In this document: positions 13,928 through 29,576 of the stretch, in pieces
Numbering within the stretch: the first letter of the stretch is position 1
How the letters are laid out: each line of letters begins with the position of its first letter
Source of the DNA: Chloroflexota bacterium
GTDB taxonomy: Bacteria; Chloroflexota; Limnocylindria; Limnocylindrales; CSP1-4
Direction of reading: 5' to 3'
DNA: 33,801 bases
NCBI GenBank assembly: GCA_031395155.1
Contig: JANNUK010000352.1
Coordinates: forward strand, 1-33,801
Program-made: the position numbers and the translations under genes
The notes under the pieces: generated by a model
Seen by the model: the letters and a program-made list of their open reading frames with translations, nothing else
What the model was told of the DNA's origin: nothing
Database searches by the model: none

Positions 13928-13947
13928 GTCTATTGTCGACAATCCAT
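13928..13947. promoter_or_regulatory. Operator-like palindrome, copy a (GTCTATTGTCGACAATCCAT)
   Basis: The 12-bp perfect palindrome ATTGTCGACAAT is at 13932-13943. It lies in the divergent intergenic region, and its centre is about 47 nt from both the AstE-like ATG (13890) and the Mo-subunit ATG (13985). Confidence 0.7.
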
Positions 13948-13984
13948 CGACGGCCCGTGCGCGGCCGTAGTGCAGGAGGACGCG

Positions 13985-16309
13985 ATGATCATGGGTCCAC
14001 GAGGCGCGCTGGGGGAGCTCGGGGTCGCCCGACCGCGGACTGACTCGGAGGAGAAGGTTCGAGGCGCCACGCGCTACGCCGCGGACCTGCCCGTCAAGGG
14101 CCTGTTGCACGCGCGGATCGTCCCGAGCCTCTACGCGCATGCTCGCATCCTGGGCATCGATGCCTCGGCCGCCCTGGAGGTACCCGGGGTCGTCGCCGTC
14201 CTGACCGCGGCCGATCTGCCGATCGTCGGCGCTGACGACATGCGGATGTTCGAGCCACTGGCTCGAAGCGAGGCGTTGTTCGCCGGACAGCCGGTGGCGC
14301 TCGTCGTGGCCGAAACGGATGCGGCGGCCGCGGACGCTGCGCAACTCGTGCTGGTCAAGGTCGAGCGGCTGCCGGCGGTGCTCGACCTTGCGGCGGCGAC
14401 CCATGTCGACAGCCCACTGGCACGCCTCGCGCCACTCGTTCCCGACGACGATGCCGAGGGTGGCTCCGCCAAGGCCGCGCATGCGGCCGTCGGAGGCGTG
14501 GGCGTCGAGCTCGACGACGAGGTCCTCTCGGCCAACGTCTTCAACCGGAAGCGCTACGTGCAGGGCGAAACCGCCGCCGCGCTGGCCGCCTCCGAGGCGA
14601 CGGTCGAGGCGACGTTCAACACCAGTTGGGTCTACCAGGGCTACATCGAGCCACACGCCGCGACCGCCTGGCTGGAGCCGGACGGGACCCTGACCGTGGC
14701 CACGGCGACGCAGGGAACGTTCTACGTCCGCAAGCAGCTCGCCCGGATCTTTGGCCGGCGGCTATCCACGATCCGTGTCCAGGCCACGCCGCTCGGAGGG
14801 TCATTCGGGTCGAAGATCCTGGTCGTCGACCCGCTCGTCGCGGGAGCCGCCCTCGTCCTTCGGCGCCCGGTCCGGCTCGTGTTGGACCGCCGCGAGGACA
14901 TCGCCGCAACGAATCCGGCGCCCGGATCGCTGATGGAGCTGCGCATCGGCGCTCGAGCCGACGGCACCCTGACCGGACTCGACGCCCGCCTCACGTTCGA
15001 CGCCGGGGCATACCGTGAATGGTCGATCGAGGGGATCGCCGCCGTACTCATCGGCGGACCATATCGCTGGGAGGCCTTCGATGTCCGGGCCTACGGCGTC
15101 CGAACGAATCGATTCGGGACCGGTTCGTATCGTGGACCCGGCGGGCCCCAGGCGGCATTTGCCATCGAGTCGCTGATCGACGAGCTGGCACAGCGGCTCG
15201 GCATCGACCCGATCGATTTTCGCCTGCGGAACCTGGCCGCGGATGGCGACACGATGGTCGACGGAGCGCCCTGGCCGGGACTGGGCCATCGGCAGGTCCT
15301 CGAGGCGGCGGCGGCACACCCCACCTGGATTGACCGGGCGACGTTGCCGCCCGGCGAGGGTGTCGCGCTGGCCCTCGGCGTGTGGCCGGGCGGCAAGGAG
15401 CCGGCGGCGGCGCTCTGCCGCCTGGATGCGGATGGGACGCTGACCGTCGTGACCGGTGTCGTCGACATGAGTGGGACGACATCGGTCTTCGCGCTGATCG
15501 CCGCCGAGACGTTCGGCGTGCCGGTCGATTCCGTGGACGTGGTGAGTCTCGACACCGACGGCGCGCCGCAATCGCCCATGAGCGGCGGCAGCGTGATCAC
15601 GTATTCGGCTGGACGGGCGATCCGCGAGGCCGCCGCCGACGCCCGACGGCAATTGCTCGCCTACGCCGCGCTCGACATGGAGATCGACCCGGTCGACCTG
15701 GAGATCGTGGATGGCGTGGTCCGGCCGGTCGGCTCACCCGATCGTGGACGGACGATCACCGACCTCGCAAGCGAGCTGCACGACTTCGGCAGTGGCCACC
15801 CCCCGGTGGAAGGGCACGCCTCGACGGTCCAGACCAGCCTGGCCCCATCGACGGCCGCGCACATTGCCCACGTTGCTCTCGATCGGGAGAGTGGCAAGGT
15901 GACCGTGCTCGGCTACGTCGTTGCCCAGGACGTCGGTCGAGCCCTCAATCCGGCCCTCGTGGAGGGCCAGATGCGCGGCGCGGCGGCACAGGGGATCGGC
16001 TGGGCCCTGTACGAGGCGCTGGTCCACGATGCGGAGGGCCAGCTCGTCAGCGGATCCTTCCTCGACTATGCGTTGCCCCGAGCGGCACACATCCCCCCGA
16101 TCGACACGATCATCGTGGAGGTCCCGGCGCCGGACGGCCCGTTTGGTGCAAAGGGGATCGGCGAGGCGCCGGTCATCCCGGCGGCGGCCGCCATCGCCTC
16201 GGCGATCTTCGCTGCGGGCGGGCCACGGCTCCGAAGCCTCCCGATGACCGGGCGTCTCGTCTGGGCCGGGCTTCAGGAGGTCGCCGCAGGAGCGCCGGGA
16301 ACCGGATGA
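13985..16309 (+). CDS. Xanthine dehydrogenase/aldehyde oxidase/CO-dehydrogenase family molybdopterin-binding large subunit
   Basis: From ORF 13883..16309. The ATG at 13985 is preceded by AGGAGG. The N-terminus RPRTDSEEKVRGATRYAADLPVKGLLHARIVPS..HARI is the a/b-hammerhead. About 774 aa with typical C-terminal GAKGIGEAPVIPAAAAIASAI. The polypeptide contains no 2Fe-2S or FAD domain. Confidence 0.85.
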   Translation: MIMGPRGALGELGVARPRTDSEEKVRGATRYAADLPVKGLLHARIVPSLYAHARILGIDASAALEVPGVVAVLTAADLPIVGADDMRMFEPLARSEALFAGQPVALVVAETDAAAADAAQLVLVKVERLPAVLDLAAATHVDSPLARLAPLVPDDDAEGGSAKAAHAAVGGVGVELDDEVLSANVFNRKRYVQGETAAALAASEATVEATFNTSWVYQGYIEPHAATAWLEPDGTLTVATATQGTFYVRKQLARIFGRRLSTIRVQATPLGGSFGSKILVVDPLVAGAALVLRRPVRLVLDRREDIAATNPAPGSLMELRIGARADGTLTGLDARLTFDAGAYREWSIEGIAAVLIGGPYRWEAFDVRAYGVRTNRFGTGSYRGPGGPQAAFAIESLIDELAQRLGIDPIDFRLRNLAADGDTMVDGAPWPGLGHRQVLEAAAAHPTWIDRATLPPGEGVALALGVWPGGKEPAAALCRLDADGTLTVVTGVVDMSGTTSVFALIAAETFGVPVDSVDVVSLDTDGAPQSPMSGGSVITYSAGRAIREAAADARRQLLAYAALDMEIDPVDLEIVDGVVRPVGSPDRGRTITDLASELHDFGSGHPPVEGHASTVQTSLAPSTAAHIAHVALDRESGKVTVLGYVVAQDVGRALNPALVEGQMRGAAAQGIGWALYEALVHDAEGQLVSGSFLDYALPRAAHIPPIDTIIVEVPAPDGPFGAKGIGEAPVIPAAAAIASAIFAAGGPRLRSLPMTGRLVWAGLQEVAAGAPGTG

Positions 16310-16929
16310 CCGCCACGACACATCCGGGCGCCGTGATCCATTGCTGGGATCACCTCGTGATCACGCTTCGCGATGACCCTGGCGGGGAGACCGCCTTCCT
16401 GAGCCTCTACGCGATCGCCTACTCGGCATCCCTGGGCGCCGGTCACGTGGCCTTCGCCGAGATCCGATCCTCCCCTGTCGGACGATGGAGCGCGACGCTG
16501 ACCGACGACCTCGAGCTCGGTCGACGTCAGCAGGATCGACTTGCGGCCATGGGCGACGAGCGAATGCGACGGAGCGGCCCGCCACGGTTGGCGCGGTTTG
16601 AGCGTGAGCCGTACGGTCCCGACGGTTTCGGCTTCCGGATCGAGACGGCCGACCAGCAGATCCACGCACGCTGGGACCACCCGGACGCGCCGTTCTGGGT
16701 CGATGGCCAGGGGGGCGGCCTCAGCGACGACGAGGACATCTGGGCGATGTTCGTCGGCGCGCGCCAGGCGACCTTGACCCTCAACGGCGCGGCCGTTGAG
16801 GGTTCCCCGTTCGACGACGACGTGTGGGTCCCCAAACTCGGCCGCCCGTTCAGTTCCGCGCACGGCGCCTTCGCCGAGGTCCGGGTCGTGCCGGTCAGTG
16901 GTCGTGCCAGAGGAACTGCTCCGGGGTGA
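16306..16929 (+). CDS. Hypothetical protein (207 aa), translationally coupled to the Mo subunit
   Basis: The in-frame ATG at 16306 overlaps the upstream TGA (ATGA at 16306-16309). The composition is protein-like (W, F, Y and D-rich: ...VIHCWDHLVITLRDDPGGETAFLSLYAIAYS...HARWDHPDAPFWVDGQGG...DDDVWVPKLGRPF...), whereas the antisense ORF 16273..16863 is R/G/A-rich. I recognise no family. It has a single Cys, so it is not a CoxS-type ferredoxin. Confidence 0.5.
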   Translation: MTATTHPGAVIHCWDHLVITLRDDPGGETAFLSLYAIAYSASLGAGHVAFAEIRSSPVGRWSATLTDDLELGRRQQDRLAAMGDERMRRSGPPRLARFEREPYGPDGFGFRIETADQQIHARWDHPDAPFWVDGQGGGLSDDEDIWAMFVGARQATLTLNGAAVEGSPFDDDVWVPKLGRPFSSAHGAFAEVRVVPVSGRARGTAPG

Positions 16930-17302
16930 CGACGATGATCACCTGCGCTGCCGCGGCGCTGATCTCCTCCCAGTGGGGGATGACGTCGGGTTCATCGCGG
17001 TACTTGCGGATGAGCGCGATGGCCGGTTCCCGCGCGGCCTCTCCTTCGATGAGGCTGGCCGTCCCGATCACCTGGACATAGTCGCCACTCGCGGGGTCGT
17101 CGATGCACAGGACGATCCGCGGGTCGCGCCGGAGGTTGTGGGTCTTGGCGGTCCCGGCGGCGCTGCAGATCCACAACTCGCCGCCCGTCCACAGATACCA
17201 GCTGGGCGTCAGCTGCGGCCGGCCGTCGCCGCGGACCGTCGCCACGATGACGTTCGGCATCGTCGTCAGGAACGCCTCCTGCCGCTCGGGCGAGGGGATC
17301 AC
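16895..17302 (-). CDS. PPOX-class (pyridoxamine 5'-phosphate oxidase fold) probable F420-dependent enzyme
   Basis: From ORF 16895..17314 (TTG). A GTG at 17302 overlaps the upstream stop (GTGA), which favours that start. ...NVIVATVRGDGRPQLTPSWYLWTGGELWICSAAGTAKTHNLRRDPRIVLCIDD... is typical of the PPOX-class F420-dependent family. Confidence 0.75.
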   Translation of the reverse strand: MIPSPERQEAFLTTMPNVIVATVRGDGRPQLTPSWYLWTGGELWICSAAGTAKTHNLRRDPRIVLCIDDPASGDYVQVIGTASLIEGEAAREPAIALIRKYRDEPDVIPHWEEISAAAAQVIIVVTPEQFLWHDH

Positions 17303-18114
17303 CGCGCCGTCCAACCGGCATCGATCATCTGCGCCGTCCCCGTGATGCCGGCCGCGTCCTCCGAGCAGAGGAAGCGGACGTACGCGGCCACCTCGTCCGC
17401 CTCGAGCAGGCGCGGGATGGCAGCTCCCGCCAGGATGATCCGGTCCAGGACCTCAGCCTCGGGGATCCCGGCAGTCCGGGCCTGGTCCGCGATCTGCGCC
17501 TCCACCAGTGGCGTTCGGACATAGGAGGGACAGACGGCGTTGCAGGTCACGCCATGCGCGCCGGCTTCGAGGGCGACGGCTCGGGTCAGCCCCAGGAGTC
17601 CGTGCTTCGCCGCGATGTAGGCGACCTTGTTCGGCGACGCCACGACCGAGTGGATCGAGCCGATATTGACGATGCGCCCCCAACCTCGCGCGATCATCGC
17701 GGGCAACGCAGCCTGGCTGAGGACGAACGGCGCGGTGAGCATGGTCGCGAGCATCGCATCCCAGCGCTCCATCGGGAAGTCGACGACCGGGGCGACGTGC
17801 TGGAAGCCGGCGCCATTGACCAGGATGTCGAGCCGCTCATGTCGCTCGATCACCGTCGCGATCATGGCCTGACAGGCAGCAACGTCCGCCAGCTCGACGG
17901 CGTGGACCCAGGCCCGGGGCAGCGCCGCCGCGACCGCGTTCGCCCTGATCTCATCGCGATCGACGACCACGACGGTGGCTCCGTCCGCCGTCAGCACCTC
18001 GGCGATCGCCCCGCCGATGCCTCCGGCCGCCCCGGTCACCACGGCCACCCGCTCGGTCAGCGGTGCGCTGGCCACGGCCGCGGCCGTGACCTGGGCCGGA
18101 TCACGGGCGGTCAA
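17299..18114 (-). CDS. Short-chain dehydrogenase/reductase (3-hydroxybutyrate-dehydrogenase-like SDR)
   Basis: VAVVTGAAGGIGGAI is the TGxxxGxG motif, NIGS is present, and YIAAKHG is the YxxxK motif, followed by PSYVRTPLV and ITGTAQMIDAGWTA. The TTG start at 18114 overlaps the ATPase stop (TTGA). Later in-frame GTG starts are possible. Confidence 0.85.
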   Translation of the reverse strand: MTARDPAQVTAAAVASAPLTERVAVVTGAAGGIGGAIAEVLTADGATVVVVDRDEIRANAVAAALPRAWVHAVELADVAACQAMIATVIERHERLDILVNGAGFQHVAPVVDFPMERWDAMLATMLTAPFVLSQAALPAMIARGWGRIVNIGSIHSVVASPNKVAYIAAKHGLLGLTRAVALEAGAHGVTCNAVCPSYVRTPLVEAQIADQARTAGIPEAEVLDRIILAGAAIPRLLEADEVAAYVRFLCSEDAAGITGTAQMIDAGWTAR

Positions 18115-19220
18115 TGGATGATCCGCTGACCGCTTTCTCGATCGAACAGGTGGATCCGCCCCGCCGCCAACACCGCCTGGACCGCTTGCCCGATTTCGAG
18201 GCGGACATCGGGGGCCACCCGGGCGACCACGGTCGCTTCTCCGGCGGCCAGTTCCACGAATGTATCGGAGCCGATCGGCTCCAGCAGCGCGACCGAGGCG
18301 CCGAAGCTTCCGATCGGCAGGTCTGCGACCCCGTTGGAGCGGAGCGTGACGTCCTCGGCGCGGACGCCGAGGGCCACGTTCGACCAGGACCCGTCACGAA
18401 GTCCCAGTTCGGCGGGCGAACCCAGCGCGATCCGGAGGTCCGGCGACACGAACGTCACCACGCCATCCGAATGCTCCAGGGCGCCGTCGACCAGGCTCAT
18501 CTTCGGCTTGCCGACGAACGTCGCGACATACAGATCGCGCGGATTCCGATAGATCTCCCGCGTGGTCCCAAGCTGGACGACCTTGCCGTCGCGCATGACC
18601 GCAATCAGGTCGGACAGCGACATGGCTTCCTCCTGGTCGTGGGTCACGAAGACACTGGTCGTGCCCAGGCTCAGGTGGAGGTGCTTGACCTCGGTCCTCA
18701 TCCGGCTGCGAAGGCCGGCATCCAGGTTGCTGAACGGCTCGTCGAGGAGGAAGACGAGCGGCTCCTTGACGAGCGCACGGCCAAGCGCGACGCGCTGCTG
18801 CTGACCGCCCGACATCTGGTCCGGTTTGCGCTTCAGCAGATGCGAGATGTCCAGCGTCTCGGCGACGGCGCCGACTCGGGAGCGGATCTCCGCCTTGGGC
18901 CGGTGCAGCAGCTTGAGACCGAACGCGATGTTGCCAAAGGCCGTCAGGTGCGGATACAGGGCATAGTTCTGGAAGACCATGGCCATCCGGCGTTCGTTCG
19001 GTGGCGTCATGGTGATGTCTTCGTTGCCCAGCAGGATGCGCCCCTTGTCGAGCCGGTCCAGCCCGGCGATCAGGCTCAAGGTCGTGCTCTTGCCGCAGCC
19101 GGACGGTCCAAGGAGCGTGACGAACGCGCCCGACGGGATGTCGATCGACAGGTTGTCGACGGCGCGGACCTTGCCGTAGAAGCGCGAGACCCCTTCCAGC
19201 CTGAGCGCGATGTCGGCCAT
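18111..19220 (-). CDS. ABC transporter ATP-binding protein, MalK/UgpC/MsiK-type (NBD paralog 1)
   Basis: Walker A is GPSGCGKST, the Q-loop is VFQNYALYP, the signature is MSGGQQQRVALGRAL and Walker B is VFLLDEPFSNLD. A C-terminal TOBE-like regulatory domain is present. The ATG at 19220 is preceded by GAGAGGAAA. Confidence 0.9.
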   Translation of the reverse strand: MADIALRLEGVSRFYGKVRAVDNLSIDIPSGAFVTLLGPSGCGKSTTLSLIAGLDRLDKGRILLGNEDITMTPPNERRMAMVFQNYALYPHLTAFGNIAFGLKLLHRPKAEIRSRVGAVAETLDISHLLKRKPDQMSGGQQQRVALGRALVKEPLVFLLDEPFSNLDAGLRSRMRTEVKHLHLSLGTTSVFVTHDQEEAMSLSDLIAVMRDGKVVQLGTTREIYRNPRDLYVATFVGKPKMSLVDGALEHSDGVVTFVSPDLRIALGSPAELGLRDGSWSNVALGVRAEDVTLRSNGVADLPIGSFGASVALLEPIGSDTFVELAAGEATVVARVAPDVRLEIGQAVQAVLAAGRIHLFDRESGQRIIH

Positions 19221-19325
19221 GCTTGGGTTTCCTCTCGTTGGATGGCTGGCAACGTTGGCGCCGGGCAGCCCGCGTTCCGCGCCTGTCCGGGTTTACTCGT
19301 TGGGCCGGCGGCGCCGCCTCGCAGC

Positions 19326-19345
19326 GCATATTGTTGACAATCTAC
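19326..19345. promoter_or_regulatory. Operator-like palindrome, copy b (GCATATTGTTGACAATCTAC)
   Basis: The core ATTGTTGACAAT is at 19330-19341, with one mismatch from the perfect palindrome. It lies about 110 nt upstream of the ATPase-1 ATG, in the 190-nt gap after the Gfo stop. A half-site-like AATGTCGAC follows at about 19366. Confidence 0.6.
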
Positions 19346-19382
19346 GATGGCATCAGGCCCTCGTCAATGTCGACGGCGGGAT

Positions 19383-19398: not shown

Positions 19399-19410
19399 CT
19401 CCCGCGATCT

Positions 19411-20469
19411 TCAGTCCACGGGCATGCTCACGAGCGGAAGGTCGACGGCGCGACCGGTCCGGGCCGAGATCTTCGCGGCCTGGGTCATCTCGATGGCCGC
19501 ACGGCCGTCCTCGCCCGTGATCCGGGGCGCGTCGCCCGCGCGCAGGGCGGCCACGAAATCAATCAGCTGGCGCGCCGTGTTGCCGATCCGCCGGGGGTCA
19601 CGCGGCTTGAAATCGGGGAGCGTCCAACTCGGCAACTCCCACACCTGCTCGTCGCGGGCGCCCGTGAGCAGCTCGATCCGATCCAGGTCCCAGAAGATCG
19701 AACCCTTGGTCCCGACGACCTGGTACTGGTTGTTCCGTCGCGTCCCAAAGCCCGATGGACCGATCTCGTAACACAACAGGATCTGCGCGATGGCCTTGTT
19801 CGACAACCGGATCTGGACCATGGCCGTGGGACTCTCCAGTGGCAGGCCGGTGAAGTTCTCGAAGTCGGCGTATACGCGAACCGGCTCCGCTCCGCTCAAC
19901 CAGCGGATGGCGTCGCACGCGTGCGATCCCCAGTCGAGGAAGGCATCGCCCTCGCGCGGGTCGGACGGCCAGCTTTGCGGGACGTTCACGAACCCGGAGC
20001 CGGGCGTCACGCTCATCGGGCGGATGAAGAGGAGGTCGCCGATGAGACCCTCGTCCAGATACGACTTGGCCCGCATGGACATCTCCATGTGGCGGGTCTG
20101 CTTGGCGACCGTCAGACGCACCCCGGCAACCCGGCACGCAGCGATGATCGCGTCGCACTCGACGACGTCGAGAGCCATCGGCTTCTCGAGGTAGACGTGT
20201 TTGCCGGCCGCGGCCACGAGCAAGGCCAGCGGCAAGTGCGTGGAGTGCGGGGTGGCGATGACGACGACGTCGACATCGGCTCTCGCAGCGAGTCGCTCGG
20301 CGGACGGTTCCACCTCGACGCCGAACTCGGCGGCCAGGGCGTCGGCACGCGACCCGAGCGCGACGGCCACCAACCGTCCGCCGTTCACCTGGGTCGCGAG
20401 GGCGTCGGCGTAGACCCGAGCCATGTTGCCCGACCCGAGGATGCCGAATCCGATGGGTGTGTCACGCAT
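19411..20469 (-). CDS. Gfo/Idh/MocA family oxidoreductase (paralog 4)
   Basis: From ORF 19411..20823. The ATG at 20469 is preceded by GGAGGA. It gives MRDTPIGFGILGSGNMARVY (Rossmann) and HVYLEKPMA (EKP motif). The 118 upstream codons cross the operator and are read-in. Confidence 0.85.
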   Translation of the reverse strand: MRDTPIGFGILGSGNMARVYADALATQVNGGRLVAVALGSRADALAAEFGVEVEPSAERLAARADVDVVVIATPHSTHLPLALLVAAAGKHVYLEKPMALDVVECDAIIAACRVAGVRLTVAKQTRHMEMSMRAKSYLDEGLIGDLLFIRPMSVTPGSGFVNVPQSWPSDPREGDAFLDWGSHACDAIRWLSGAEPVRVYADFENFTGLPLESPTAMVQIRLSNKAIAQILLCYEIGPSGFGTRRNNQYQVVGTKGSIFWDLDRIELLTGARDEQVWELPSWTLPDFKPRDPRRIGNTARQLIDFVAALRAGDAPRITGEDGRAAIEMTQAAKISARTGRAVDLPLVSMPVD

Positions 20470-20521
20470 GTCGTGCGTCCTCCGTCGAGTCTGGTGCCCC
20501 CTCGACCTGAAGGTCGACAGT

Positions 20522-20541
20522 GTACATTGTCGACAATCTAC
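20522..20541. promoter_or_regulatory. Operator-like palindrome, copy c (GTACATTGTCGACAATCTAC)
   Basis: The perfect 12-bp core is at 20526-20537, in the 115-nt divergent region between Gfo (ATG 20469) and the 2-hydroxyacid dehydrogenase (ATG 20585). A second inverted repeat, TCGACC-N4-GGTCGA, is at 20502-20517. Confidence 0.7.
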
Positions 20542-20584
20542 GAGATCTACGTCACTCCAGGAAGGACCATCCAGCGAGGCCGGG

Positions 20585-21577
20585 ATGCCCCACGGAATCG
20601 ACCAGCGGGTCGTTGTCACCGACTCGGAAGCGCTGTTGCGGCCGGGCATCGCCCTGCTGCGGGAACGCGGCGTCGAGGTGGAGGTCCTGCGCGACGCGAT
20701 CGGGGGGTCGGAAGCGGCCGCGATCGTCGCCGAGTTTCCGGCAGCCATCGTCGGGTTGCTCCCGTTCCGGGCACCCGAGATCGCGGCGCTGCGCCGAACA
20801 GGCGCGTTGGTCCGGGCGGGCATCGGCTACGACATCATCGATGTCGATGCGGCGACGGCCGCCGGGATCTGGGTGGTCAACGTGCCCGACTATTGTGTCG
20901 ATGAAGTCGCGGATCACGCCGTCCTCCTGCTGCTGTCGGCATGGCGGCGACTGACCGAGCTGGAACGTGTGTGGCATACCGGGTCGTGGGTGGCGCCCGG
21001 CCTCGTCCCACCGGTCAACCGTGTCCGGGGCCGGCGCCTGGGGATCGTCGGGTTCGGGCGGATCGGGCGAGCCGTCGCCACTCGGGCGCAAGCGTTCGGT
21101 TTTGACGTCGTCGCGCACGATCCGTTCGTGTCGGACCACCTCCTGCGGGCGGCCGATGTGGGACCGATCGGGCTGGACGCGCTCTTCGAGACGAGCGATG
21201 CGGTCACCCTGCACTGTCCGCTGACGCCGGAGACAGCGTACCTGGTCAGCAACGAGCGCCTGTCACGCGTCCGGCCCGGGTTGGTCCTGGTCAACACGAG
21301 TCGGGGCGGCCTCGTCGATCTGGCAGCGCTTGACGGCGCGGTCGGAGACGGTCGCGTCGGCGCGGTCGGCCTGGACGTGCTGGAGGACGAGCCCAATCCG
21401 GACCTGACGCGTCCGCTGTTCGCCCGGCCGAACGTGGTCCTGACGCCGCATCTCGCCTGGTACTCGCTGGAGGCGCGCCGCGATCTCGCGTTGCAGGCCG
21501 CCGAGGAGGCGTATCGATTCATCCGGGGTGAACGCCCGCGCAACATCGTCAATCCGGCGGCTCGGCCGGCGTCCTGA
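20585..21577 (+). CDS. D-isomer-specific 2-hydroxyacid dehydrogenase family (CtBP/PGDH-like)
   Basis: From ORF 20423..21577, using the ATG at 20585. RLGIVGFGRIGRAVA is the NAD-binding GxGxxGR motif. LVNTSRGGLVD and DVLEDEP...LTPHLAWYS are the catalytic R/E/H region typical of the family. Confidence 0.8.
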   Translation: MPHGIDQRVVVTDSEALLRPGIALLRERGVEVEVLRDAIGGSEAAAIVAEFPAAIVGLLPFRAPEIAALRRTGALVRAGIGYDIIDVDAATAAGIWVVNVPDYCVDEVADHAVLLLLSAWRRLTELERVWHTGSWVAPGLVPPVNRVRGRRLGIVGFGRIGRAVATRAQAFGFDVVAHDPFVSDHLLRAADVGPIGLDALFETSDAVTLHCPLTPETAYLVSNERLSRVRPGLVLVNTSRGGLVDLAALDGAVGDGRVGAVGLDVLEDEPNPDLTRPLFARPNVVLTPHLAWYSLEARRDLALQAAEEAYRFIRGERPRNIVNPAARPAS

Positions 21578-21601
21578 CGGTCCCGAGCGTCGAGGTCGTC
21601 C

Positions 21602-22687: not shown

Positions 22688-22706
22688 GGAGACGCTCCCG
22701 GACATG

Positions 22707-22738
22707 GGCACAGGGCGAGGTTCTTCTCGCCCTGTGCC
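22707..22738 (-). terminator. Perfect 13-bp stem hairpin (GGCACAGGGCGAG-N6-CTCGCCCTGTGCC)
   Basis: Seen directly in the sequence. It lies between the SBP stop (22786) and the MetE-like gene, with 1 nt (22706) separating it from the ATG at 22705. It could be a terminator or mRNA-stabilising element for the permease-SBP transcript, or an attenuator for the MetE-like gene. Confidence 0.5.
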
Positions 22739-22751
22739 GGTGTTTCTCGAT

Positions 22752-22778
22752 CACCCGGCCGGCGGCGCCGGCCGGGTG
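22752..22778 (-). terminator. 27-nt GC palindrome (CACCCGGCCGGCG-G-CGCCGGCCGGGTG)
   Basis: The 13-nt arms are perfectly complementary. It starts 8 nt downstream of the SBP stop codon on the minus strand. It is the first of two tandem hairpins. Confidence 0.5.
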
Positions 22779-22785
22779 GCGCATG

Positions 22786-24249
22786 CTAGGCGCTCAGGTA
22801 CTTGATGATCACATCGTTGACGCCCAGCACGGCGGCATCATGCGCCTGCTGGGCCGAATACTCGCCCTTGATGATCTTGTTGACGACGTCGTCGAAGACC
22901 TGGGAGTAGGTAAACGGCGTCGACCACAGGTTGGTCGCGCCCTTGGCCTGCGCCGTATGGGCGGGGATGAGCGGCTGGGCGGCGAGGACCGCCGGGTCCG
23001 CGAGGACCGAGTTCCGCGTCGGCGGGTAGAGCTCCGGTTCGTGCAGGCTGATCGCGAGCGCGACGTCCGGGGTGAAGAGGCGGTTGAAGTAGCTCCAGGA
23101 GGCCTCAGGCTGCTTGGTCCACTTGTTGACGCCCGTGCCATCCGCGCCCTGCGCCGAACCCGTCGTCCCGGCGGTGATACCGGGGAACTGGCGGACCGCC
23201 AGCTTGCCGGCGGCGACCAGTTCCTTCTCCGTGGGTTCAATCTCTGACTCGGAGTGCATGACCGTGGCCATGTTGCCCTTGGCGAACTCGACGTACGCCT
23301 CGTGCTCATTGGTGATGTTCAGGTATCTGGCATCCCAGAACCCGCTCTTCAGGCCGGCCTCGATCGTACGGAAGGCCGACAGCCCCTCGGGGCCGCCGAA
23401 CATCACCTGGGTCCGATCCTCGCTGAACATGGGATGCCCGGTCGAGTTGTAGATGTGGGTCCAGTACAGCTGGGCGAACGTCCCGCCGGCGCCCTGCCAC
23501 GGCTGAGCGCACGGGATGATTTTCTTCTCGACGAACTTCGGCGTGAGGGCGAAGAGCCCTTCATAGGTGTCCGGCGGATTGGCGCTGTCCTCGCCGATCG
23601 CGGTGAACAGTTCCGGGTTCCAGGTCCAAAGCCAGGCGCTGAAGTGGATCGGCAGGCCGCGCAGGACCTGGTCCGCCTGGGTGGTGAACCCGGCCAGAGC
23701 GCCGTTGACGAAGTCGCTCAGGTCACCGGTGTAGTTCCCCTCGAGCGGCAGCAGCAGGCGTGAGCCGAAGCGCTGCATGTAGTTGTCGTACGTGTAGTGG
23801 AGATCCCACGAGGCATCCTGCGTGGCGATGAAGCTCGCGTACTTGACCGGCTTCTCGTCGAACGGGATGTTGGTAAAGGTGGCATTTCCCCCGGTCTCGG
23901 CCTTCCAGGCATCGAGCCCCAGCTGGAACGCCGGGATCGAATAGCCACCGGTGCTGTTGTTGATGGTCACCCCGGCGTAGCTCACCGGAGCCGCTGTCGG
24001 TGGTGCGGTGGCGCCCGGCGCTGGCGTGCCCGGTGGTGGAGTGGCCGGCGCGGGCGACGGACTTGCCGTCGCGCCGCACGCCGCGACGAACGCCGCGCTG
24101 CCCGCGATCAGTCCACCCTTGAGCACGTCGCGGCGGCTGAGTGCCGACATCGATCGGCCGGCCAATGGTTGCTGTTGCTCGGTCATCTCGTCCTCCATGT
24201 TCGGCGGTTGATGGGCATTCTCACGCTGACCCTCAGGCCCTTCCGTCAT
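22786..24249 (-). CDS. ABC transporter extracellular solute-binding lipoprotein (family 1 / CUT1-type), Tat signal plus lipobox
   Basis: SRRDVLKGGLIAGSAAFVAAC is a twin-arginine motif followed by a lipobox Cys, then a Pro/Ala/Thr linker and a mature domain of about 400 aa typical of sugar SBPs. The ATG at 24249 overlaps the permease stop (ATGA). Alternative ATGs are at 24198 and 24186; the latter has GGAGGA 4 nt upstream. Confidence 0.85.
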   Translation of the reverse strand: MTEGPEGQRENAHQPPNMEDEMTEQQQPLAGRSMSALSRRDVLKGGLIAGSAAFVAACGATASPSPAPATPPPGTPAPGATAPPTAAPVSYAGVTINNSTGGYSIPAFQLGLDAWKAETGGNATFTNIPFDEKPVKYASFIATQDASWDLHYTYDNYMQRFGSRLLLPLEGNYTGDLSDFVNGALAGFTTQADQVLRGLPIHFSAWLWTWNPELFTAIGEDSANPPDTYEGLFALTPKFVEKKIIPCAQPWQGAGGTFAQLYWTHIYNSTGHPMFSEDRTQVMFGGPEGLSAFRTIEAGLKSGFWDARYLNITNEHEAYVEFAKGNMATVMHSESEIEPTEKELVAAGKLAVRQFPGITAGTTGSAQGADGTGVNKWTKQPEASWSYFNRLFTPDVALAISLHEPELYPPTRNSVLADPAVLAAQPLIPAHTAQAKGATNLWSTPFTYSQVFDDVVNKIIKGEYSAQQAHDAAVLGVNDVIIKYLSA

Positions 24250-26156
24250 CCCTTCACAAACCCTCCTGATAGACCGGAGATGATCCGGCGGTGGAATAGA
24301 AGGACAAGCAACAGGCAGGGGATCACCGCGACGATCGCCGCCGCGGCGAGCAGATTCGGTGGCGGCATCTGATTGAGCGGCCCTGGGAAGTTCTGGATCC
24401 CCGTGATCAGGCGGGTGATCGTGACGGCTTCCCGATTGCCCAGGATCACGGCGAACAGGAACTCGTTCCAGGTCCCGATCAGGATGAGGATAGACGCGGC
24501 TGCAAGCCCCGGGCGAGCCGCCGGGATGGTGACACGGAACAGGGTTCCCAGGCGTGAGCAGCCGTCGATTCGGGCGGCCTTCTCGAGCGAGACCGGGACC
24601 TCCAGGAAGAAGTTGCGCAACAACCAGATGATCAGGGGGAGCCAGAACGCCACATTGACGATGACCAGCGATGCCACGGTGTCGGTCAGGCCCAGGATCT
24701 GGAAGATGCGCAGGACCGGGATCGCCATGACGATGGCCGGGACCATCTGGACGATGATGAGGAGGGCGAGGGTCGTCGACTTGCCGGGCAGCTCATAGCG
24801 GGCCAGAGCGTAGGCCGGCGGCGCAGCCAGGATGATGACGAAGAGCGTCGTCAGGAGCGCGGTCTGCAGGCTGACCCACAGTGAGCCCACCCAGCGCGGG
24901 TCGCCCGCGATGATCTGGTAGCCATCCAGCCACAGGTTCGACGTCAGGGCCGGTGGCTGCTGGGCCAGGGCGGCGAACGGCTGCAGGCTCGCGATGACCA
25001 TCCAGGCGATCGGCGCGATGAAAAAGAAGAAGAGCGCCGACACACCCAGCCCGAACGCGATTCGGCTGACCCAGGCCGGGAATCTGATCCAGGACCGCGC
25101 CCGCTCGGCATCCGGCTGGGCGTCGCTGGTCCAGGCCACACGTGATGACCGGGAGCCCAGGCGAAGCGAGGTGCGCGCGGATGCGGCGGCGTTCTCGGCC
25201 TCCTCGTCGACAGGCGGCCCGACCGGCTGGCGGCGACGCAAGAACACCAGGATCAGGAGGCTGGCCGCGACGATGATCGCGAACAGGACCACGGTGATCG
25301 CCGCGCCATAGCCGAGACTGATCTGCTCAAATGTGATCGTGTAGATCGCGTAGATGAGCACGTACGTGTCGCGACCCGGACCACCGCTGGTGAGGCTGTA
25401 CAGCAGGTCGAACACCTGGAGCCCGATGATGATCTGGAGGACGCCCACGACGATCAGCGTGTTCTTGATCGCCGGCAGCGTGATGAAGCGGAAGGATTCC
25501 CATGCCGTGGCGCCGTCCATCCGGGCCGCCCGATAGTGCGCCTCCGGGATGGTCCTCAATGCGGCGAGCAGGAGCACCGCGAGGAGTGGGACCGATCGCC
25601 ACGATTGCGCGATGAGCGCGATCACCACGGCCTGAACCGTGTTGGCCAGCCAGTTCAACGGTTCATCGAGAAGCCCGATCCCGATGAGGACCCCGTTCAC
25701 GATGCCGAAGTTGGTATCGAAGATGAATCGCCAGAAGATCCCGGCCACGATCGACGCGACCGCCCATGGCATCAGCAGTCCCATGAAGAAGATCGAGGCG
25801 CCGCGAAACCCCCGGTTGAGGGCCAGCGCCGTGATCAGGGCCAGAGGCAGGGTAATGGCGGTGGACATCGCGGCGAAGAAGATGGTCCGTGGGATCGCCG
25901 CCAGGACCTCCAAATCGGCCGGGAGTCGGGTCAGGTAATTGCGCAATCCCACGAATGGGGTGAGATCGTCCTTCGCGAGTTCGATGCGGAAGAGGCTCAA
26001 CCCGAACACGGCAAGCGTCGGGGGAAGGACGATCAGGCCCACCAGGAGCAGACCCGGGACGGACACCAGGAGGGCGAAACGCTGTTCGCTCAGCCGATCG
26101 AGGCGGCGCGACAGGCGGCCCGCCCCACGACTGAGTGCCGCCCCGGCTAGCGCCAT
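24246..26156 (-). CDS. Fused double ABC permease (MalF-like + MalG-like halves in one polypeptide)
   Basis: This is the single ORF 24246..26225; I prefer the ATG at 26156, which has GGAGG 10 nt upstream. It has two complete BPD_transp_1-type halves, each with its own EAA loop (EAHYRAARMDGATAWESFRFITLPAI and SLEKAARIDGCSRLGTLFRVTIPAA). A linker of about 50 aa (RRRQPVGPPVDEEAENAAASARTSLRLGSRSS...) joins them. Confidence 0.85.
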   Translation of the reverse strand: MALAGAALSRGAGRLSRRLDRLSEQRFALLVSVPGLLLVGLIVLPPTLAVFGLSLFRIELAKDDLTPFVGLRNYLTRLPADLEVLAAIPRTIFFAAMSTAITLPLALITALALNRGFRGASIFFMGLLMPWAVASIVAGIFWRFIFDTNFGIVNGVLIGIGLLDEPLNWLANTVQAVVIALIAQSWRSVPLLAVLLLAALRTIPEAHYRAARMDGATAWESFRFITLPAIKNTLIVVGVLQIIIGLQVFDLLYSLTSGGPGRDTYVLIYAIYTITFEQISLGYGAAITVVLFAIIVAASLLILVFLRRRQPVGPPVDEEAENAAASARTSLRLGSRSSRVAWTSDAQPDAERARSWIRFPAWVSRIAFGLGVSALFFFFIAPIAWMVIASLQPFAALAQQPPALTSNLWLDGYQIIAGDPRWVGSLWVSLQTALLTTLFVIILAAPPAYALARYELPGKSTTLALLIIVQMVPAIVMAIPVLRIFQILGLTDTVASLVIVNVAFWLPLIIWLLRNFFLEVPVSLEKAARIDGCSRLGTLFRVTIPAARPGLAAASILILIGTWNEFLFAVILGNREAVTITRLITGIQNFPGPLNQMPPPNLLAAAAIVAVIPCLLLVLLFHRRIISGLSGGFVKG

Positions 26157-26190
26157 GCCACGCCTGCCTCCACTGGATCCACGCCAACCT

Positions 26191-26217
26191 CCCGGTGAAC
26201 CCGGTGAGCCCGGTGAT
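26191..26217. repeat. Three tandem 9-bp repeats (CCCGGTGA+N) in the permease leader
   Basis: The plus strand reads cccggtgaa cccggtgag cccggtgat, which is TCACCGGGN x3 on the coding strand. It lies between operator copy d and the ATG at 26156. If the TTG at 26225 were used it would encode SPGSPGSPG. Confidence 0.7.
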
Positions 26218-26233
26218 GATGGCAATGTCTACT

Positions 26234-26253
26234 GTCGATTGTCAACAATAGCC
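26234..26253. promoter_or_regulatory. Operator-like palindrome, copy d (GTCGATTGTCAACAATAGCC)
   Basis: The core ATTGTCAACAAT is at 26238-26249, with one mismatch. It sits in the gap between the VHPO-like stop (26281) and the permease start. On the gene strand it reads TATTGTTGACAATCGAC and contains a TTGACA hexamer. Confidence 0.6.
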
Positions 26254-26280
26254 ATTGCGACAACCGCCTCGCCGGTCGGT

Positions 26281-27696
26281 TCACCGCAGGCTCCCATCGC
26301 GGCTCGCCCGCGCGACCGCGAGCTCGCCGATCTGGCGTCCCACGTCCAGGCCCACCTCGTTATCGCTGCGCCAATGGATGCCGCCATACAGGCGCGATAC
26401 CGCCGCCTCCTCGGACTGCTGGGTGAGCGATGCGCGATCAGCGGGAAAGAAGGCGGACAGGACGAACGAGCTGGCACCCGAGAGGGTCGAATGACCGGAG
26501 ATGTAGGCCGGGAAGTTGGGGGTGATGATTGTCGAGGCGAAGCCCGGGATCAGCCCGACCGGTCGACCCGACCAATAGGCGTACTTGGCGTCCCAGCACG
26601 CGATGAACGCATCTGCCTGGGCGATCGCAAGGTAGGTGAGGACGCGTGCCGTCGACTGGAGCGACAGCGCGTCTCGAGCAGTCAGTCCGATGGCGATACG
26701 CATCCAGTGCCCCGGAGGGGTATCGGTCCCCGAACCGTCCGCCCAGAACCGCGCGATCCCGATCTGTTCGTCCGTGAGCTGCTCGTTCACTCGGACGACC
26801 TCGTCGGCTTCCGCCTGCCACTCCGGCGACCCGTAGATCGGCGGGGGGCCGGGCCGGAGATCCGAGCCGCTGCCCATGAGCCAGGGCCGCCAGGTCCCGG
26901 CCAGGGGCTCGGTCGGCTGGTCGTTCCGGAATGGCTTGGCGGGCACCCATCCCCCGGGCTGGTCGGGAATCGTGCCCTGCCAGAAGGCCGACCCGCCGTC
27001 GCTCTCGGCGCGCGCGACGGCCAGGGCCCCGATCGCCTCGCCTATTGCGGTGCCGGCGGCAAGATCCGAAGCAGTGTGCGTCCCGACGGCGAGTTGGACG
27101 CTGCGCAATTCGTCGGCATGTCCTTCGAACGTCGCTGAGCGGTCCGGATAGATCGTCGAGAGGACCGCCACCGCTGCGGCCGCGATCGCGGCATCCACCG
27201 CGGCGTGGCTGGAAAGTTCGTCCGCCGGTGCGAGCACCTTGATTCGAGAATCGCGCTCGACTGGCGCAGATCGCGGGTACGCGAGCTTGGCGTCGCACGC
27301 GGCAATGATCGCGTCGTACATGGCGGCGTTCAGAAGCGCGAGGGTCCGCGAGACCCGCACGGGATTGGTCTTCGCGTCCCTGACGGCCGTCAGCAGGATC
27401 TCGTTCCAGCGGACGGGGGAGGGACCCGACGTCCAGTAGGCGATCTGGTCGTTCAGACTCGAGGCATCTACCTGGCCGGCGACGATCTCGTCGAGCTCAC
27501 GACGATCCTCGGCCGATCCGATCTCAACCCGGGGGGCCAGCCGGACATCGCTCGGCCGCTGCATGAGGAGCGGCTGCCAGCGGGCGGGCGCCTCGGCCCG
27601 CGCGGACCGCACGACGAAGGTTCCGGCCACGAGGGCGACGACCGTCGCCACCAGGATGATCAATCCGAACCGGGCCTTGCGTGCGCGCGAGGTCAT
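26281..27696 (-). CDS. Secreted PAP2-superfamily protein, vanadium-dependent haloperoxidase-like / acid-phosphatase-like
   Basis: The start is ATG 27696 (TGATG overlap with the upstream stop) or GTG 27699. The N-terminal signal/anchor is FGLIILVATVVALVAGTFVVRSARA. All three PAP2 motifs are present: KYAYWSGRP (Kx6RP), YISGHS (SGH) and SRLYGGIHWRSD (SRx5Hx3D). The N-terminal helical domain (WNEILLTAVRD...LLNAAMYDA) is as in bacterial VHPO-like proteins. Confidence 0.7.
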   Translation of the reverse strand: MTSRARKARFGLIILVATVVALVAGTFVVRSARAEAPARWQPLLMQRPSDVRLAPRVEIGSAEDRRELDEIVAGQVDASSLNDQIAYWTSGPSPVRWNEILLTAVRDAKTNPVRVSRTLALLNAAMYDAIIAACDAKLAYPRSAPVERDSRIKVLAPADELSSHAAVDAAIAAAAVAVLSTIYPDRSATFEGHADELRSVQLAVGTHTASDLAAGTAIGEAIGALAVARAESDGGSAFWQGTIPDQPGGWVPAKPFRNDQPTEPLAGTWRPWLMGSGSDLRPGPPPIYGSPEWQAEADEVVRVNEQLTDEQIGIARFWADGSGTDTPPGHWMRIAIGLTARDALSLQSTARVLTYLAIAQADAFIACWDAKYAYWSGRPVGLIPGFASTIITPNFPAYISGHSTLSGASSFVLSAFFPADRASLTQQSEEAAVSRLYGGIHWRSDNEVGLDVGRQIGELAVARASRDGSLR

Positions 27697-29396
27697 CACG
27701 GCGCACCGTTCGAGGTGACCCGGATGACCTGATCCGCCTGCACCGACCCGAGGTTGGTCGTTGTGGCATCAGACCATGTCACGACGACCTCATCGGCCAT
27801 CTCGGCCTGCCCAAGCCCAAAGTAGAGCTCCTGGGGCATCCCGGCCAGGTAACTTCCTCCGAGGAGCGCAACCTGCGTTGTTCTGATCCCGCCGACGTCG
27901 ACGGTCACACGGGCGCCGGCAGCCTGGGCGCCGGCCCGGCTCAGATCCACGGTAAGCCAGTGCTGGTCGGACGTCCCGTTCTCCAGCAGGACCACGGAAT
28001 AGGCCACCTGGGTCACGAGCAGGTCCGGCCCGCCGTCGCGGTCGTAGTCGAATGGGATCACGGTCCGCTGATCACCCGGGATATCGCAGCCGTTCCCGAT
28101 CGCGCGCACCAACGCCCGCTCTCCCGTGCCCAGGAAGAGACGGGCGTTCTGGCCGCGAAGTTCGGGGCTTTGCTGTGCGATGAATTCCTGCATGCCCTGG
28201 ACGACGTACAGGTCCAGCCGGCCGTCGAGATCCATGTCCGTGAAGGCGGTCCCCCAGCCCCAGCCGGTGTCCTCGACACCCATCCGGGTGGCGTCATCGA
28301 CGTAGGTCAGTGTGCCGTCGGCGGCGCGTCCCCCGATCAGCAGCGTATTCCCGGACCCGGTTCCGAACTCGTTGTTGGGATCCGTGATGTTGGTGACGTA
28401 CAGGTCCAGCGCTCCGTCGTTCCCGAGATCTGCGACGGCGATCCCCATGTCGTTGCCGACATGACCCACGCCGTGCTCGTCGGAGGCCAGGCGGAATTCG
28501 CCCTCGTGATTCTCGAAGAAGAGGTCGCCCCGATGGTCCAACGCGACGTACAGATCCGGCCAGCCATCCCCGGTGAAGTCGGCGAAGACCGAACTGAAGC
28601 TGTCGGCTGTGACCTGGCCGAGATGGACTTCGCTGGTCACGTCCTCGAAGCGAAACCCGCCGAGGTTCCGGTACAACCGGTTCTGACCGGGGAAGCGACC
28701 CTTGATGCTCATCGCGTCGCGTCCGGGGTCTCCACCAAGCTCCATCGTCCAGTAGGTCACATACACGTCGAGGAGCCCATCGCGGTCGTAGTCCGCCAGC
28801 GACAATCCACCGACGAGATAGCCGACGGGATCGAACCCGGAGTCCTTGGTCACGTCGGCGAAGGTGCCATCACCCTCGTTTCGATAGACCTTCGATGGGC
28901 TGCCGGTCTTGTTCCCGTCCCAGTCGTTCATGACGATCAGGTCGAGCTGGCCATCGTTGTCGAGGTCGACGAAGGCGGCGGCGCGGCTCCCGCCCTCGTT
29001 CGTGAGCCCCGCTGAGTCGGTGGCATCGACGAAGTCCGCCTGGCCGGTCGCGCTGAGTTGATTACGGAAGAGGCGATTCGGGTGGCCGAGCTGGCCGAGC
29101 AGCAGGACGCTCAGGCTCCCATCGTCGAACACATCCGCGACGGCCGCACCGTTGCCCATATTGCGAAGCATCATCGCGGCCATGGGTTCCAGGGCGAAGG
29201 GCGTGGTCCCGTAGGCACCGCGATACGAGAGTCCTCGATCGGTCGCCACGTCGCGGCAGAGCTTCGGCGCGGCGGTCGCGGGTCGAGTCAGAACCAGCCC
29301 GCCCGCGACCAGCAGGACCGAGGCCGCGACGACGACGATCAGCGCGGCGATGACCATCCGGCGGCGTCCGATGATCGATCTCGCGGCTATGCTCAT
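27696..29396 (-). CDS. CRTAC1-family protein (FG-GAP/VCBS repeats + ASPIC/UnbV C-terminal domain), membrane-anchored or secreted
   Basis: From ORF 27696..29483. The ATG at 29396 is preceded by GAGGAGAGG. The N-terminal hydrophobic segment is MVIAALIVVVAASVLLVAGG. It has six DxDxDGxxD-type repeats (FVDLDNDGQLDLIV, LADYDRDGLLDVYV, FADFTGDGWPDLYV, VADLGNDGALDLYV, FTDMDLDGRLDLYV, FDYDRDGGPDLLV). The C-terminal ...GGSYLAGMPQELYFGLG is UnbV/ASPIC-like. Confidence 0.8.
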   Translation of the reverse strand: MSIAARSIIGRRRMVIAALIVVVAASVLLVAGGLVLTRPATAAPKLCRDVATDRGLSYRGAYGTTPFALEPMAAMMLRNMGNGAAVADVFDDGSLSVLLLGQLGHPNRLFRNQLSATGQADFVDATDSAGLTNEGGSRAAAFVDLDNDGQLDLIVMNDWDGNKTGSPSKVYRNEGDGTFADVTKDSGFDPVGYLVGGLSLADYDRDGLLDVYVTYWTMELGGDPGRDAMSIKGRFPGQNRLYRNLGGFRFEDVTSEVHLGQVTADSFSSVFADFTGDGWPDLYVALDHRGDLFFENHEGEFRLASDEHGVGHVGNDMGIAVADLGNDGALDLYVTNITDPNNEFGTGSGNTLLIGGRAADGTLTYVDDATRMGVEDTGWGWGTAFTDMDLDGRLDLYVVQGMQEFIAQQSPELRGQNARLFLGTGERALVRAIGNGCDIPGDQRTVIPFDYDRDGGPDLLVTQVAYSVVLLENGTSDQHWLTVDLSRAGAQAAGARVTVDVGGIRTTQVALLGGSYLAGMPQELYFGLGQAEMADEVVVTWSDATTTNLGSVQADQVIRVTSNGAP

Positions 29397-29422
29397 CCTC
29401 TCCTCAGGCCGGGCCCTGGACG

Positions 29423-29442
29423 GGATACTGTCGACAATCGAT
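29423..29442. promoter_or_regulatory. Operator-like palindrome, copy e (GGATACTGTCGACAATCGAT)
   Basis: The core ACTGTCGACAAT is at 29427-29438, with one mismatch. It lies 31 nt upstream of the CRTAC1 ATG (29396). Confidence 0.6.
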
Positions 29443-29556
29443 GCCGGAGTGCCGCGACGATAGCGATTCCCCGGCGTCTCCACAAGGTCCAGTCCGATTT
29501 CGGACCGCCGACCAGTGGTGGTTGGCTGCTGCCTTGACGCTCGGCGCGTTCGACCG

Positions 29557-29576
29557 GTAGATTGTCGACAATCTAC
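29557..29576. promoter_or_regulatory. Operator-like palindrome, copy f (GTAGATTGTCGACAATCTAC, perfect 20-bp palindrome)
   Basis: All 20 positions are self-complementary. It ends 39 nt upstream of the ATPase-2 ATG (29616). TAGATT and TACGCT (TAnnnT, -10-like) overlap or flank it. Confidence 0.75.

Follow-up and report, generated by a model that had tools for sequence, protein, structure and literature searches.

Operators of the FadR subfamily of GntR-type regulators share a palindromic NyGT-Nx-ACNy plan with TKGT and ACMA boxes and 2–3 nt between GT and AC (PMC4494728). The spacer is 3 nt long in most groups of the subfamily and 2 nt in the GntR, HpxS, HypR, MdcY, and PrpR groups (PMC4494728). 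For the GntR-type PrpR of Pseudomonas aeruginosa (PA0797), the operator has been predicted as ATTGTCGACAAT, and the protein binds its own upstream region in an electrophoretic mobility shift assay (EMSA) (10.1101/2022.08.25.505149); PA0797 has also been described as PmiR (PMC9728974). Regarding the sugar-acid regulators of the subfamily (Bacillus subtilis GntR, Escherichia coli DgoR, ExuR/UxuR, and LgoR), two sources describe TKGT/ACMA palindromes that overlap promoters, control of uptake and of dehydratase/aldolase pathways, and a substrate or intermediate as the inducer (PMC4494728; PMC11705089). Here, we analyzed a complete 33.8-kb contig, JANNUK010000352.1 (hereafter, the window), from an uncultured soil Chloroflexota metagenome-assembled genome (MAG) of the Candidatus Limnocylindria type, in which a first-pass annotation had singled out six intergenic copies of a 20-bp palindrome. 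Our comparisons indicate that the six palindromes are very likely operators of one dimeric FadR-subfamily GntR repressor, the gene of which would lie elsewhere in the genome.

The six 20-mers were all found where the first-pass annotation had placed them. A search with ATTGTCGACAATC at up to two mismatches returned 12 strand matches in the window, corresponding to six palindromic sites, against 0.56 expected, and 100 dinucleotide-preserving shuffles gave a maximum of five matches and never 12. A symmetric position weight matrix (PWM) trained on 53 sites, all from other genomes, scored the six sites at 18.2–39.6 bits, with all other positions of the 33.8 kb staying below 8 bits, while a PWM rescan at a 9-bit cut-off returned the identical six sites, with ~0.1 matches per window in block shuffles. 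The 53 external and six window sites share the consensus TAGATTGT-CG-ACAATCTA, a palindrome of 18–20 bp, (G)TAGATTGTCGACAATCTA(C), whose innermost part, TTGTCGACAA, is the best conserved (98–99% per position). The arrangement of the half-sites had initially been given as TTGT-N4-ACAA, which is incorrect; the architecture is TTGT-N2-ACAA, namely TTGT-CG-ACAA (GT-CG-AC), which agrees with the FadR-subfamily consensus and belongs to the group with 2 nt between GT and AC. AraR (N4), DgoR, and PdhR (both N3), which had been proposed as analogs, are not the closest ones, and the N2 group with PrpR, GntR, MdcY, and HypR stands nearer.

Site 1 (GTCTATTGTCGACAATCCAT, 13928–13947, 28 bits) occupies a divergent region flanked by the AstE/AspA-like deacylase-BNR operon on the minus strand and the xanthine-dehydrogenase-family molybdopterin-subunit gene on the plus strand, 37 nt from either start codon. 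Site 2 (GCATATTGTTGACAATCTAC, 19326–19345, 28.5 bits; ortholog at L001:18641) is positioned 105 nt upstream of the minus-strand operon encoding an ABC ATPase, a short-chain dehydrogenase/reductase (SDR), and an F420-dependent PPOX-class protein. Site 3 (GTACATTGTCGACAATCTAC, 20522–20541, 36.5 bits; ortholog at L001:16264) again occupies a divergent region, 52 nt from the Gfo/Idh/MocA gene (minus strand, start 20469) and 43 nt from the D-2-hydroxyacid dehydrogenase gene (plus strand, start 20585). Site 4 (GGCTATTGTTGACAATCGAC, 26234–26253, read on the minus strand, 20.7 bits; orthologs at L001:9913, L002:9928, and L050:17924) is found 77 nt upstream of the minus-strand operon for a fused permease, a solute-binding protein (SBP), and a MetE-like protein (start 26156). 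The weakest, site 5 (GGATACTGTCGACAATCGAT, 29423–29442, 18.2 bits), precedes the FG-GAP/ASPIC-PAP2 (VCPO-like) operon (minus strand, start 29396) by 26 nt, and site 6 (GTAGATTGTCGACAATCTAC, 29557–29576; orthologs at L001:6698, L002:6583, L050:14534, and L004:8794), a perfect consensus palindrome with the maximum score of 39.6 bits, lies 39 nt upstream of a second ABC ATPase gene (plus strand, start 29616). All six sites thus stand upstream of start codons, as originally described, whereas the spacing, first given as 30–115 nt, measures 26–105 nt. Together they fall within the ~0.9 kb (~4.5%) of intergenic DNA between 11.7 and 31.5 kb, and the three divergent intergenic regions (13891–13984, 20470–20584, and 29397–29615) hold four of them.

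Several near-identical short palindromes in AT-richer intergenic patches might also represent a dispersed repeat or a miniature inverted-repeat transposable element (MITE), or else chance matches with the SalI-like GTCGAC. A literature search for TTGTCGACAA yielded mostly cloning primers with SalI sites, the Pseudomonas PrpR paper being the only relevant item. No shuffle reaches the observed count, which argues against chance. The flanks of the six copies (60 nt on each side) are 27–34% identical, the background level for this composition; the repeated unit therefore spans only ~20 bp and is not a MITE. The positions are furthermore orthologous across genomes, and we rejected the MITE or dispersed repeat on these two grounds, the probability of a repeat or chance origin being practically negligible.

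In related genomes, the syntenic loci L001 (on a 2.14-Mb contig), L002/L003, and L004 have this palindrome at matching intergenic positions: it separates the ABC ATPase gene from the FG-GAP gene and the 2-hydroxyacid dehydrogenase gene from the Gfo/Idh/MocA gene, and it is found upstream of the permease and of the other ABC ATPase. The permeases of these loci are 73–87% identical and the motif is kept, while the flanking DNA has diverged. Across seven gene-called loci (the window, L001, L002, L004, L049, L050, and L053), which are 90–96% coding, the motif is absent from coding DNA: all 28 sites are intergenic, 23–180 nt from a start codon. Within these loci, motif density in coding DNA and synteny, both of which the first-pass annotation had put forward as checks, bear out a promoter-proximal element. 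In the more distant genome L052, where the permease is 62% and the GntR protein only 33% identical, no motif copy was found.

The same relatives point to the cognate regulator. In L002, the gene for a 230-aa protein with GntR and FCD domains, at 2735–3427, has a site 56 nt upstream of it, and 44 loci were obtained when one genome per species was scanned for related proteins. The motif is present 46–111 nt upstream of the regulator gene in every one of the 22 Limnocylindria-type loci for which upstream DNA is available (the regulator being at least 65% identical in 18 of them and 47–54% in four), while it is missing, at up to one mismatch, upstream of all 20 distant homologs (Verrucomicrobiota, Actinomycetota, and other phyla). 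The gene that follows the regulator always encodes a sugar-acid-dehydratase-like member of the enolase superfamily. The upstream neighbor varies: most loci have a divergent FMN_dh operon there, L002, L005, and L051 a co-directional GGT gene, L024 a divergent GGT gene, and L019 and L053 a divergent ABC-permease operon, and the operator stays with the regulator gene in all four contexts. These associations agree with the initial proposal of a winged-helix GntR-type dimer. The proposal that the cognate gene lies elsewhere also holds, as tblastn detected no copy of it in the window; in the L001 genome ~60 kb of the 2.14-Mb contig separate it from the cluster, and in L002, L050, L051, and L053 it adjoins the cluster. 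The XRE-cupin protein of the window (6306–7037), already doubted as the regulator in the first-pass annotation, was rejected, with no PWM site at 8 bits or more near its gene or anywhere in 1–11.7 kb.

Were the palindrome the operator of some other transcription factor, such as a LacI-family protein recognizing the central CpG or another type of winged-helix protein, the GntR+FCD gene would be only a regulated member of the regulon. LacI-type operators do have a central CG step, as the present motif does; the window does not encode the cognate protein, and most sites upstream of the GntR gene serve a divergent operon as well. Yet no LacI-type or other regulator recurs beside the sites in ~50 loci, the MarR, MerR, and XRE-cupin genes in those loci have no site, and it is the GntR gene that the site follows through the four neighbor contexts. 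The fit to the FadR-subfamily consensus, a core identical to that of PrpR/PmiR (the closest structurally solved homolog), and the lack of the motif in L052, which has a different GntR, likewise argue against another factor, and we consider this explanation unlikely.

The predicted properties of the protein are consistent with such an operator. The regulator is a GntR-family protein of ~230 aa and of the FadR subfamily, with a winged helix-turn-helix (wHTH) at its N terminus and a six-helix FCD domain. In four representatives, the GntR wHTH domain (PF00392) was recognized with E-values of 2.5e-14 to 2.9e-16, and FCD (PF07729) with 1e-21 to 3e-25 (1.3e-21 alongside the GntR value of 2.5e-14); PF00392 is also precomputed for ~120 homologs. 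NCBIfam matches of the regulator all fell under the curated cut-offs, the best being phnR_burk at 115 bits against a cut-off of 271 bits. The AlphaFold model (pLDDT 83) comprises three helices and a two-strand wing followed by six C-terminal helices, and its top Foldseek matches were all FCD-type GntR proteins, namely Atu1419/VanR with palindromic DNA, McbR, and PmiR. Among solved structures, PmiR (PDB 7XP0) is the best sequence match (E 2e-20, 32% identity). FCD domains possess a metal-assisted carboxylate pocket. Asp138, His142, His195, and His217 are invariant in 31 sequences of the regulator, each aligns with an identical residue in PmiR, and the set fits a predicted pocket of this kind.

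The sites are, in addition, intertwined with promoter elements. Among 61 nonredundant sites examined in both orientations, TTGACA-like hexamers show a sharp peak 22–23 nt upstream (34 of 122 orientations; no other offset exceeds five), which puts the half-site TAGATT at the −10 distance of 17–18 nt, and the resulting TTGACg-N17/18-TAGATT pattern occurs in at least seven gene contexts. Four sigma-70-like promoters were identified in the window: TTGACC-N18-GACAAT (13914–13943, plus strand), with its −10 inside site 1; TTGACG-N17-TAGATT (19339–19367, minus strand), whose −10 is a half-site of site 2; TTGACA-N18-(TG)CATCAT (26216–26245, minus strand), with its −35 inside site 4 and a counterpart at L001:9921–9950; and TTGACG-N18-TAGATT (29534–29563, plus strand), whose −10 is a half-site of site 6. 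In independent sigma-70 scans, these were the only promoter-like matches in 19.8 kb of the window (four, with 1.2 expected), and all four overlap operator sites; of four matches in L001 (0.9 expected) three do so, as do all three in L004 (0.8 expected). In site 4, a C-to-T change in the center, ATTGTTGACAAT, creates a perfect TTGACA −35 box that is followed by an extended −10 (TG-CATCAT), and both the variant and the promoter are kept in L001 (9913–9932), which suggests selection on a dual operator/−35 function. Alignment of the regulator's own intergenic region revealed three conserved blocks, a TGGACa box, the operator, and, on its other side, the reverse complement of GGCTTGAC, which indicates two face-to-face promoters that share one operator.

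Given this overlap, the palindrome might simply be a symmetric core-promoter element, that is, two back-to-back −10-like hexamers (TAGATT on each strand) read by RNA polymerase holoenzyme, and both the canonical distance of TAGATT from TTGACg in many sites and the near-exclusive recovery of these sites in the sigma-70 scans would suit it. On the other hand, the best-conserved TTGTCGACAA (98–99%) sits between the −10 hexamers, where it has no role in sigma-70 recognition, and unidirectional promoters (L001:18641, L002:14626, and site 2 of the window) retain the complete palindrome. Moreover, the palindrome is located at the −35 in the permease promoter and is restricted to a specific set of catabolic genes, other promoters of the same loci being without it. 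A core-promoter element is, on balance, very unlikely.

With the palindromes read as GntR-type operators, the promoter geometry suggests how repression could work. At most promoters, a bound dimer would cover approximately −13 to +7, including the −10 element and the transcription start, and at the permease promoter approximately −43 to −24, including the −35 element. Occupancy by the dimer would block RNA polymerase, i.e. repress by promoter occlusion, and in divergent regions one bound dimer would shut both face-to-face promoters at once. In the relatives, the repressor gene and the enolase-superfamily sugar-acid-dehydratase-like gene form an operon, and the operator carried by its promoter points to autoregulation. 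We infer that release would be brought about by a carboxylate effector, probably a sugar acid or a pathway intermediate, binding to the predicted metal-containing FCD pocket.

Several points weigh against this interpretation. The regulator gene is absent from the window, and its link to the sites comes from relatives. The site that precedes the regulator serves, in most genomes, a divergent operon too and hence does not by itself prove autoregulation. A paralogous GntR+FCD group (47–54% identity) is likewise preceded by the motif or a degenerate version of it, at times within one genome (L019 and L025), so that the binder may be either paralog or both. The canonical TTGACG-N17/18-TAGATT arrangement is present at only two of the six window sites, and sites 3 and 5 have no convincing −35 box. 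As to the Pseudomonas operator that shares the core, it derives from a prediction and a whole-fragment EMSA (10.1101/2022.08.25.505149), and the DNase I footprint of PmiR spans two adjacent sites, with other, GC-rich targets reported as well (PMC9728974).

In the paralogous group, which includes L019:5895 and L025:5890 (on the same 652-kb contig), L023, and L024, the palindrome or a half-degenerate version (GTATATTGTCGACA..) is located ~60–110 nt upstream, and cross-regulation or shared specificity could be at work. A related palindrome, ACTGTCGACAGT, was observed at L045:5900 in Saccharothrix obliqua (NZ_JAHXGQ010000002.1), 101 nt upstream of an actinomycete GntR homolog whose wHTH is 47% identical to that of the regulator; recognition of the TGTCGACA type may occur widely in the FadR-subfamily proteins of Terrabacteria. 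The transporter cluster of L052 has GATCA-rich inverted repeats, such as TGATATATGATCATAG and CACAGATCAAAGATCATTGAC, in three promoter regions (3535–3702, 7820–7922, and 9785–10000), adjoining a different GntR+FCD gene, and a 660-nt gap at L052:6171–6829 contains G+C-rich tandem repeats with CCCGCTGGGCGG palindromes. Gene calls in L051 (contig_14130, 503,917 nt) are fragmented, with MR_MLE, FMN_dh, GGT, and Meth_synt_2 each in pieces, probably owing to frameshift errors of a long-read assembly, and protein lengths from this locus are not reliable.

Genes in the window, which has a G+C content of ~68%, were called on the basis of codon-position G+C, Pfam, and NCBIfam, and start codons were set by Shine–Dalgarno sequences and ortholog lengths. 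As the first-pass annotation had counted, eight transcription units preceded by operator sites were found, and they fill the region from 11.7 to 31.5 kb. The first (11754–13890, minus strand) encodes the AstE/AspA-like deacylase (12934–13890) and a BNR-repeat protein (11754–12950), and the second (13985–16929, plus strand) the xanthine-dehydrogenase-family molybdopterin subunit, followed by an open reading frame (ORF) of ~205 aa without a family match. The third (16895–19220, minus strand) comprises an MsiK/UgpC-like ABC ATPase, the SDR, and the F420-dependent PPOX-class oxidoreductase, the fourth (19411–20469, minus strand) the Gfo/Idh/MocA oxidoreductase, and the fifth (20585–21577, plus strand) the D-isomer-specific 2-hydroxyacid dehydrogenase. 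In the sixth (21602–26156, minus strand), a fused MalF/MalG-type ABC permease (24246–26156) is followed by the SBP (22786–24249), which has no family match itself and whose orthologs match SBP_bac_1, and by a protein with only the MetE-like catalytic domain (21602–22711). Homologs of the permease at 62–87% identity come from MAGs annotated as Chloroflexota or Candidatus Limnocylindrales. The seventh unit (26281–29396, minus strand) encodes an FG-GAP/ASPIC-UnbV protein and a PAP2/VCPO-like protein, and the eighth (29616–30722, plus strand) the second MsiK/UgpC-like ABC ATPase. Within the permease operon, the 74-nt gap between the SBP and MetE-like genes holds a perfect, strong hairpin (22707–22738; 14-bp stem with 10 G–C pairs and a 4-nt loop), which may act as an intra-operon terminator, attenuator, or mRNA stabilizer, by analogy with those after SBP genes of other ABC operons.

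The left part of the window, from 1.2 to 11.7 kb, is a single catabolic cluster (1272–11720) with three Gfo/Idh/MocA genes and genes for a luciferase-like protein, an amidohydrolase, a D-Ser-dehydratase-like protein, an FAA hydrolase, an HpcH/HpaI aldolase, and the XRE-cupin regulator. The PWM scan of the window found no motif copy in this cluster, in agreement with the earlier remark that its operons lack the motif. In relatives, an HpcH/HpaI aldolase gene does have the motif upstream (L049:3293 and L050:4457), which indicates that regulon membership of this type of aldolase differs between genomes. At the opposite end, synteny with all relatives stops at ~31.15 kb, inside a PNPOx-like gene region, and in the closest relatives that place is taken by the GntR regulator and its partner gene, for which reason the right end of the window is likely a rearrangement or an insertion. 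The 2.6 kb beyond the end of synteny (31150–33801) have the lowest G+C of the window (0.616 at 31501–32000) and contain a 562-codon ORF (32013–33701, minus strand) and several others without Pfam or NCBIfam matches; at 31.5–33.8 kb, no Pfam match was obtained in any frame tested and no GntR by tblastn.

In the window and its relatives, the recurrent regulon members include the components of a CUT1-type ABC transporter (the fused permease, the SBP, and two MsiK-like ATPases) and, among dehydrogenases, Gfo/Idh/MocA proteins, D-2-hydroxyacid dehydrogenases, and an FMN-dependent hydroxy-acid oxidase. They further include several enolase-superfamily proteins, nearest to galactonate, talarate, or arabinonate dehydratases; HpcH/HpaI, DHDPS-type, and RraA-like aldolases; and a PIG-L deacetylase, GNAT acetyltransferases, and an aminotransferase, along with the more unusual FG-GAP/ASPIC, VCPO-like PAP2, and MetE-like proteins. 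From its gene content, the regulon looks like a multi-operon system for the uptake and the oxidative, nonphosphorylative catabolism of a sugar acid or amino-sugar acid. NCBIfam does not allow the substrate to be named, all enzyme matches being far below the curated cut-offs.

Candidatus Limnocylindria is an abundant class of soil and freshwater that, to our knowledge, has no cultured, genetically tractable members, and a literature search on regulators in Limnocylindria found nothing. It is conceivable, and we put it forward only tentatively, that the operators mark an undescribed large regulon specific to this class, with at least 8–10 operons and ~25–30 genes, which may encode a new catabolic route for a sugar acid or an N-acylated amino-sugar acid from plants or soil, and that the reuse of the PrpR/PmiR core reflects a recognition code kept across phyla. 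The proposed route would combine the fused-permease CUT1 transporter with several enolase-superfamily dehydratases, aldolases, and members that are unusual for pathways of this kind, namely the FG-GAP/ASPIC exoprotein, the VCPO-like PAP2 protein, the MetE-catalytic-domain protein, and the xanthine-dehydrogenase-family subunit. The working principle of GntR/FadR regulators is unchanged here, and this is ordinary, well-supported regulatory biology, useful for annotation and for the simple experimental test that it allows. One 20-bp matrix ties approximately eight operons here, and more in relatives, to one regulator, which gives a comparatively validated regulon for a Chloroflexota class known only from metagenomes and aids the annotation of the SBP, FG-GAP/ASPIC, VCPO-like, and MetE-like genes of the cluster. 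The TTGACg-N17/18-TAGATT promoter architectures are offered for a lineage without promoter data, and the predicted repressor-operator pair could quickly be checked in vitro, with GTAGATTcaCGtgAATCTAC as the core-mutant counterpart of GTAGATTGTCGACAATCTAC.

Compared with known systems, the best structural matches of the regulator (Foldseek E 2–3e-10) are the Atu1419/VanR-type six-helix FCD repressors (PDB 6ZA3, with palindromic DNA) and E. coli McbR/YncC, which have the six-helix FCD and a short palindrome in common with the predicted model; they are 26–28% identical to the regulator, and their effectors and regulons differ. Atu1419 reportedly forms a tetrameric assembly. The sugar-acid regulators B. 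subtilis GntR, E. coli DgoR, ExuR/UxuR, and LgoR have the same domain architecture, but no orthology to them was detected; GT and AC are 3 nt apart in the operators of DgoR, ExuR, and most others, as against 2 nt in the Limnocylindria motif, and the Limnocylindria regulon is much larger and spread over the chromosome. With PrpR/PmiR (7XP0/7XP1), in contrast, the 12-bp palindromic core ATTGTCGACAAT is identical, the GT-N2-AC spacing is equal, and both systems have a site upstream of the regulator's own gene. Orthology to PrpR/PmiR was nevertheless rejected, given the 32% identity, the absence of prp genes, and a partner gene that is enolase-superfamily dehydratase-like; in the gene-called loci, no prpB, prpC, or prpD and no methylcitrate synthase, dehydratase, or methylisocitrate lyase family was found. 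The two regulators belong to different phyla (Chloroflexota and Pseudomonadota), and PrpR/PmiR controls one prp operon, whereas the Limnocylindria regulon has at least eight operons for transport and sugar-acid-type catabolism; unlike the PrpR/PmiR core, the Limnocylindria motif extends to 18–20 bp with TAG/CTA flanks. PmiR acts as a repressor until a carboxylate effector (2-methylcitrate or 2-methylisocitrate) releases it, and a similar release would be expected for the Limnocylindria regulator, which is 32% identical to PmiR overall and ~45% in the wHTH and keeps the Asp/His/His/His set of the FCD pocket. If true, the reuse of this core at 32% protein identity would represent a clean natural case of a DNA-recognition code that was kept while the effector and the regulon were swapped.

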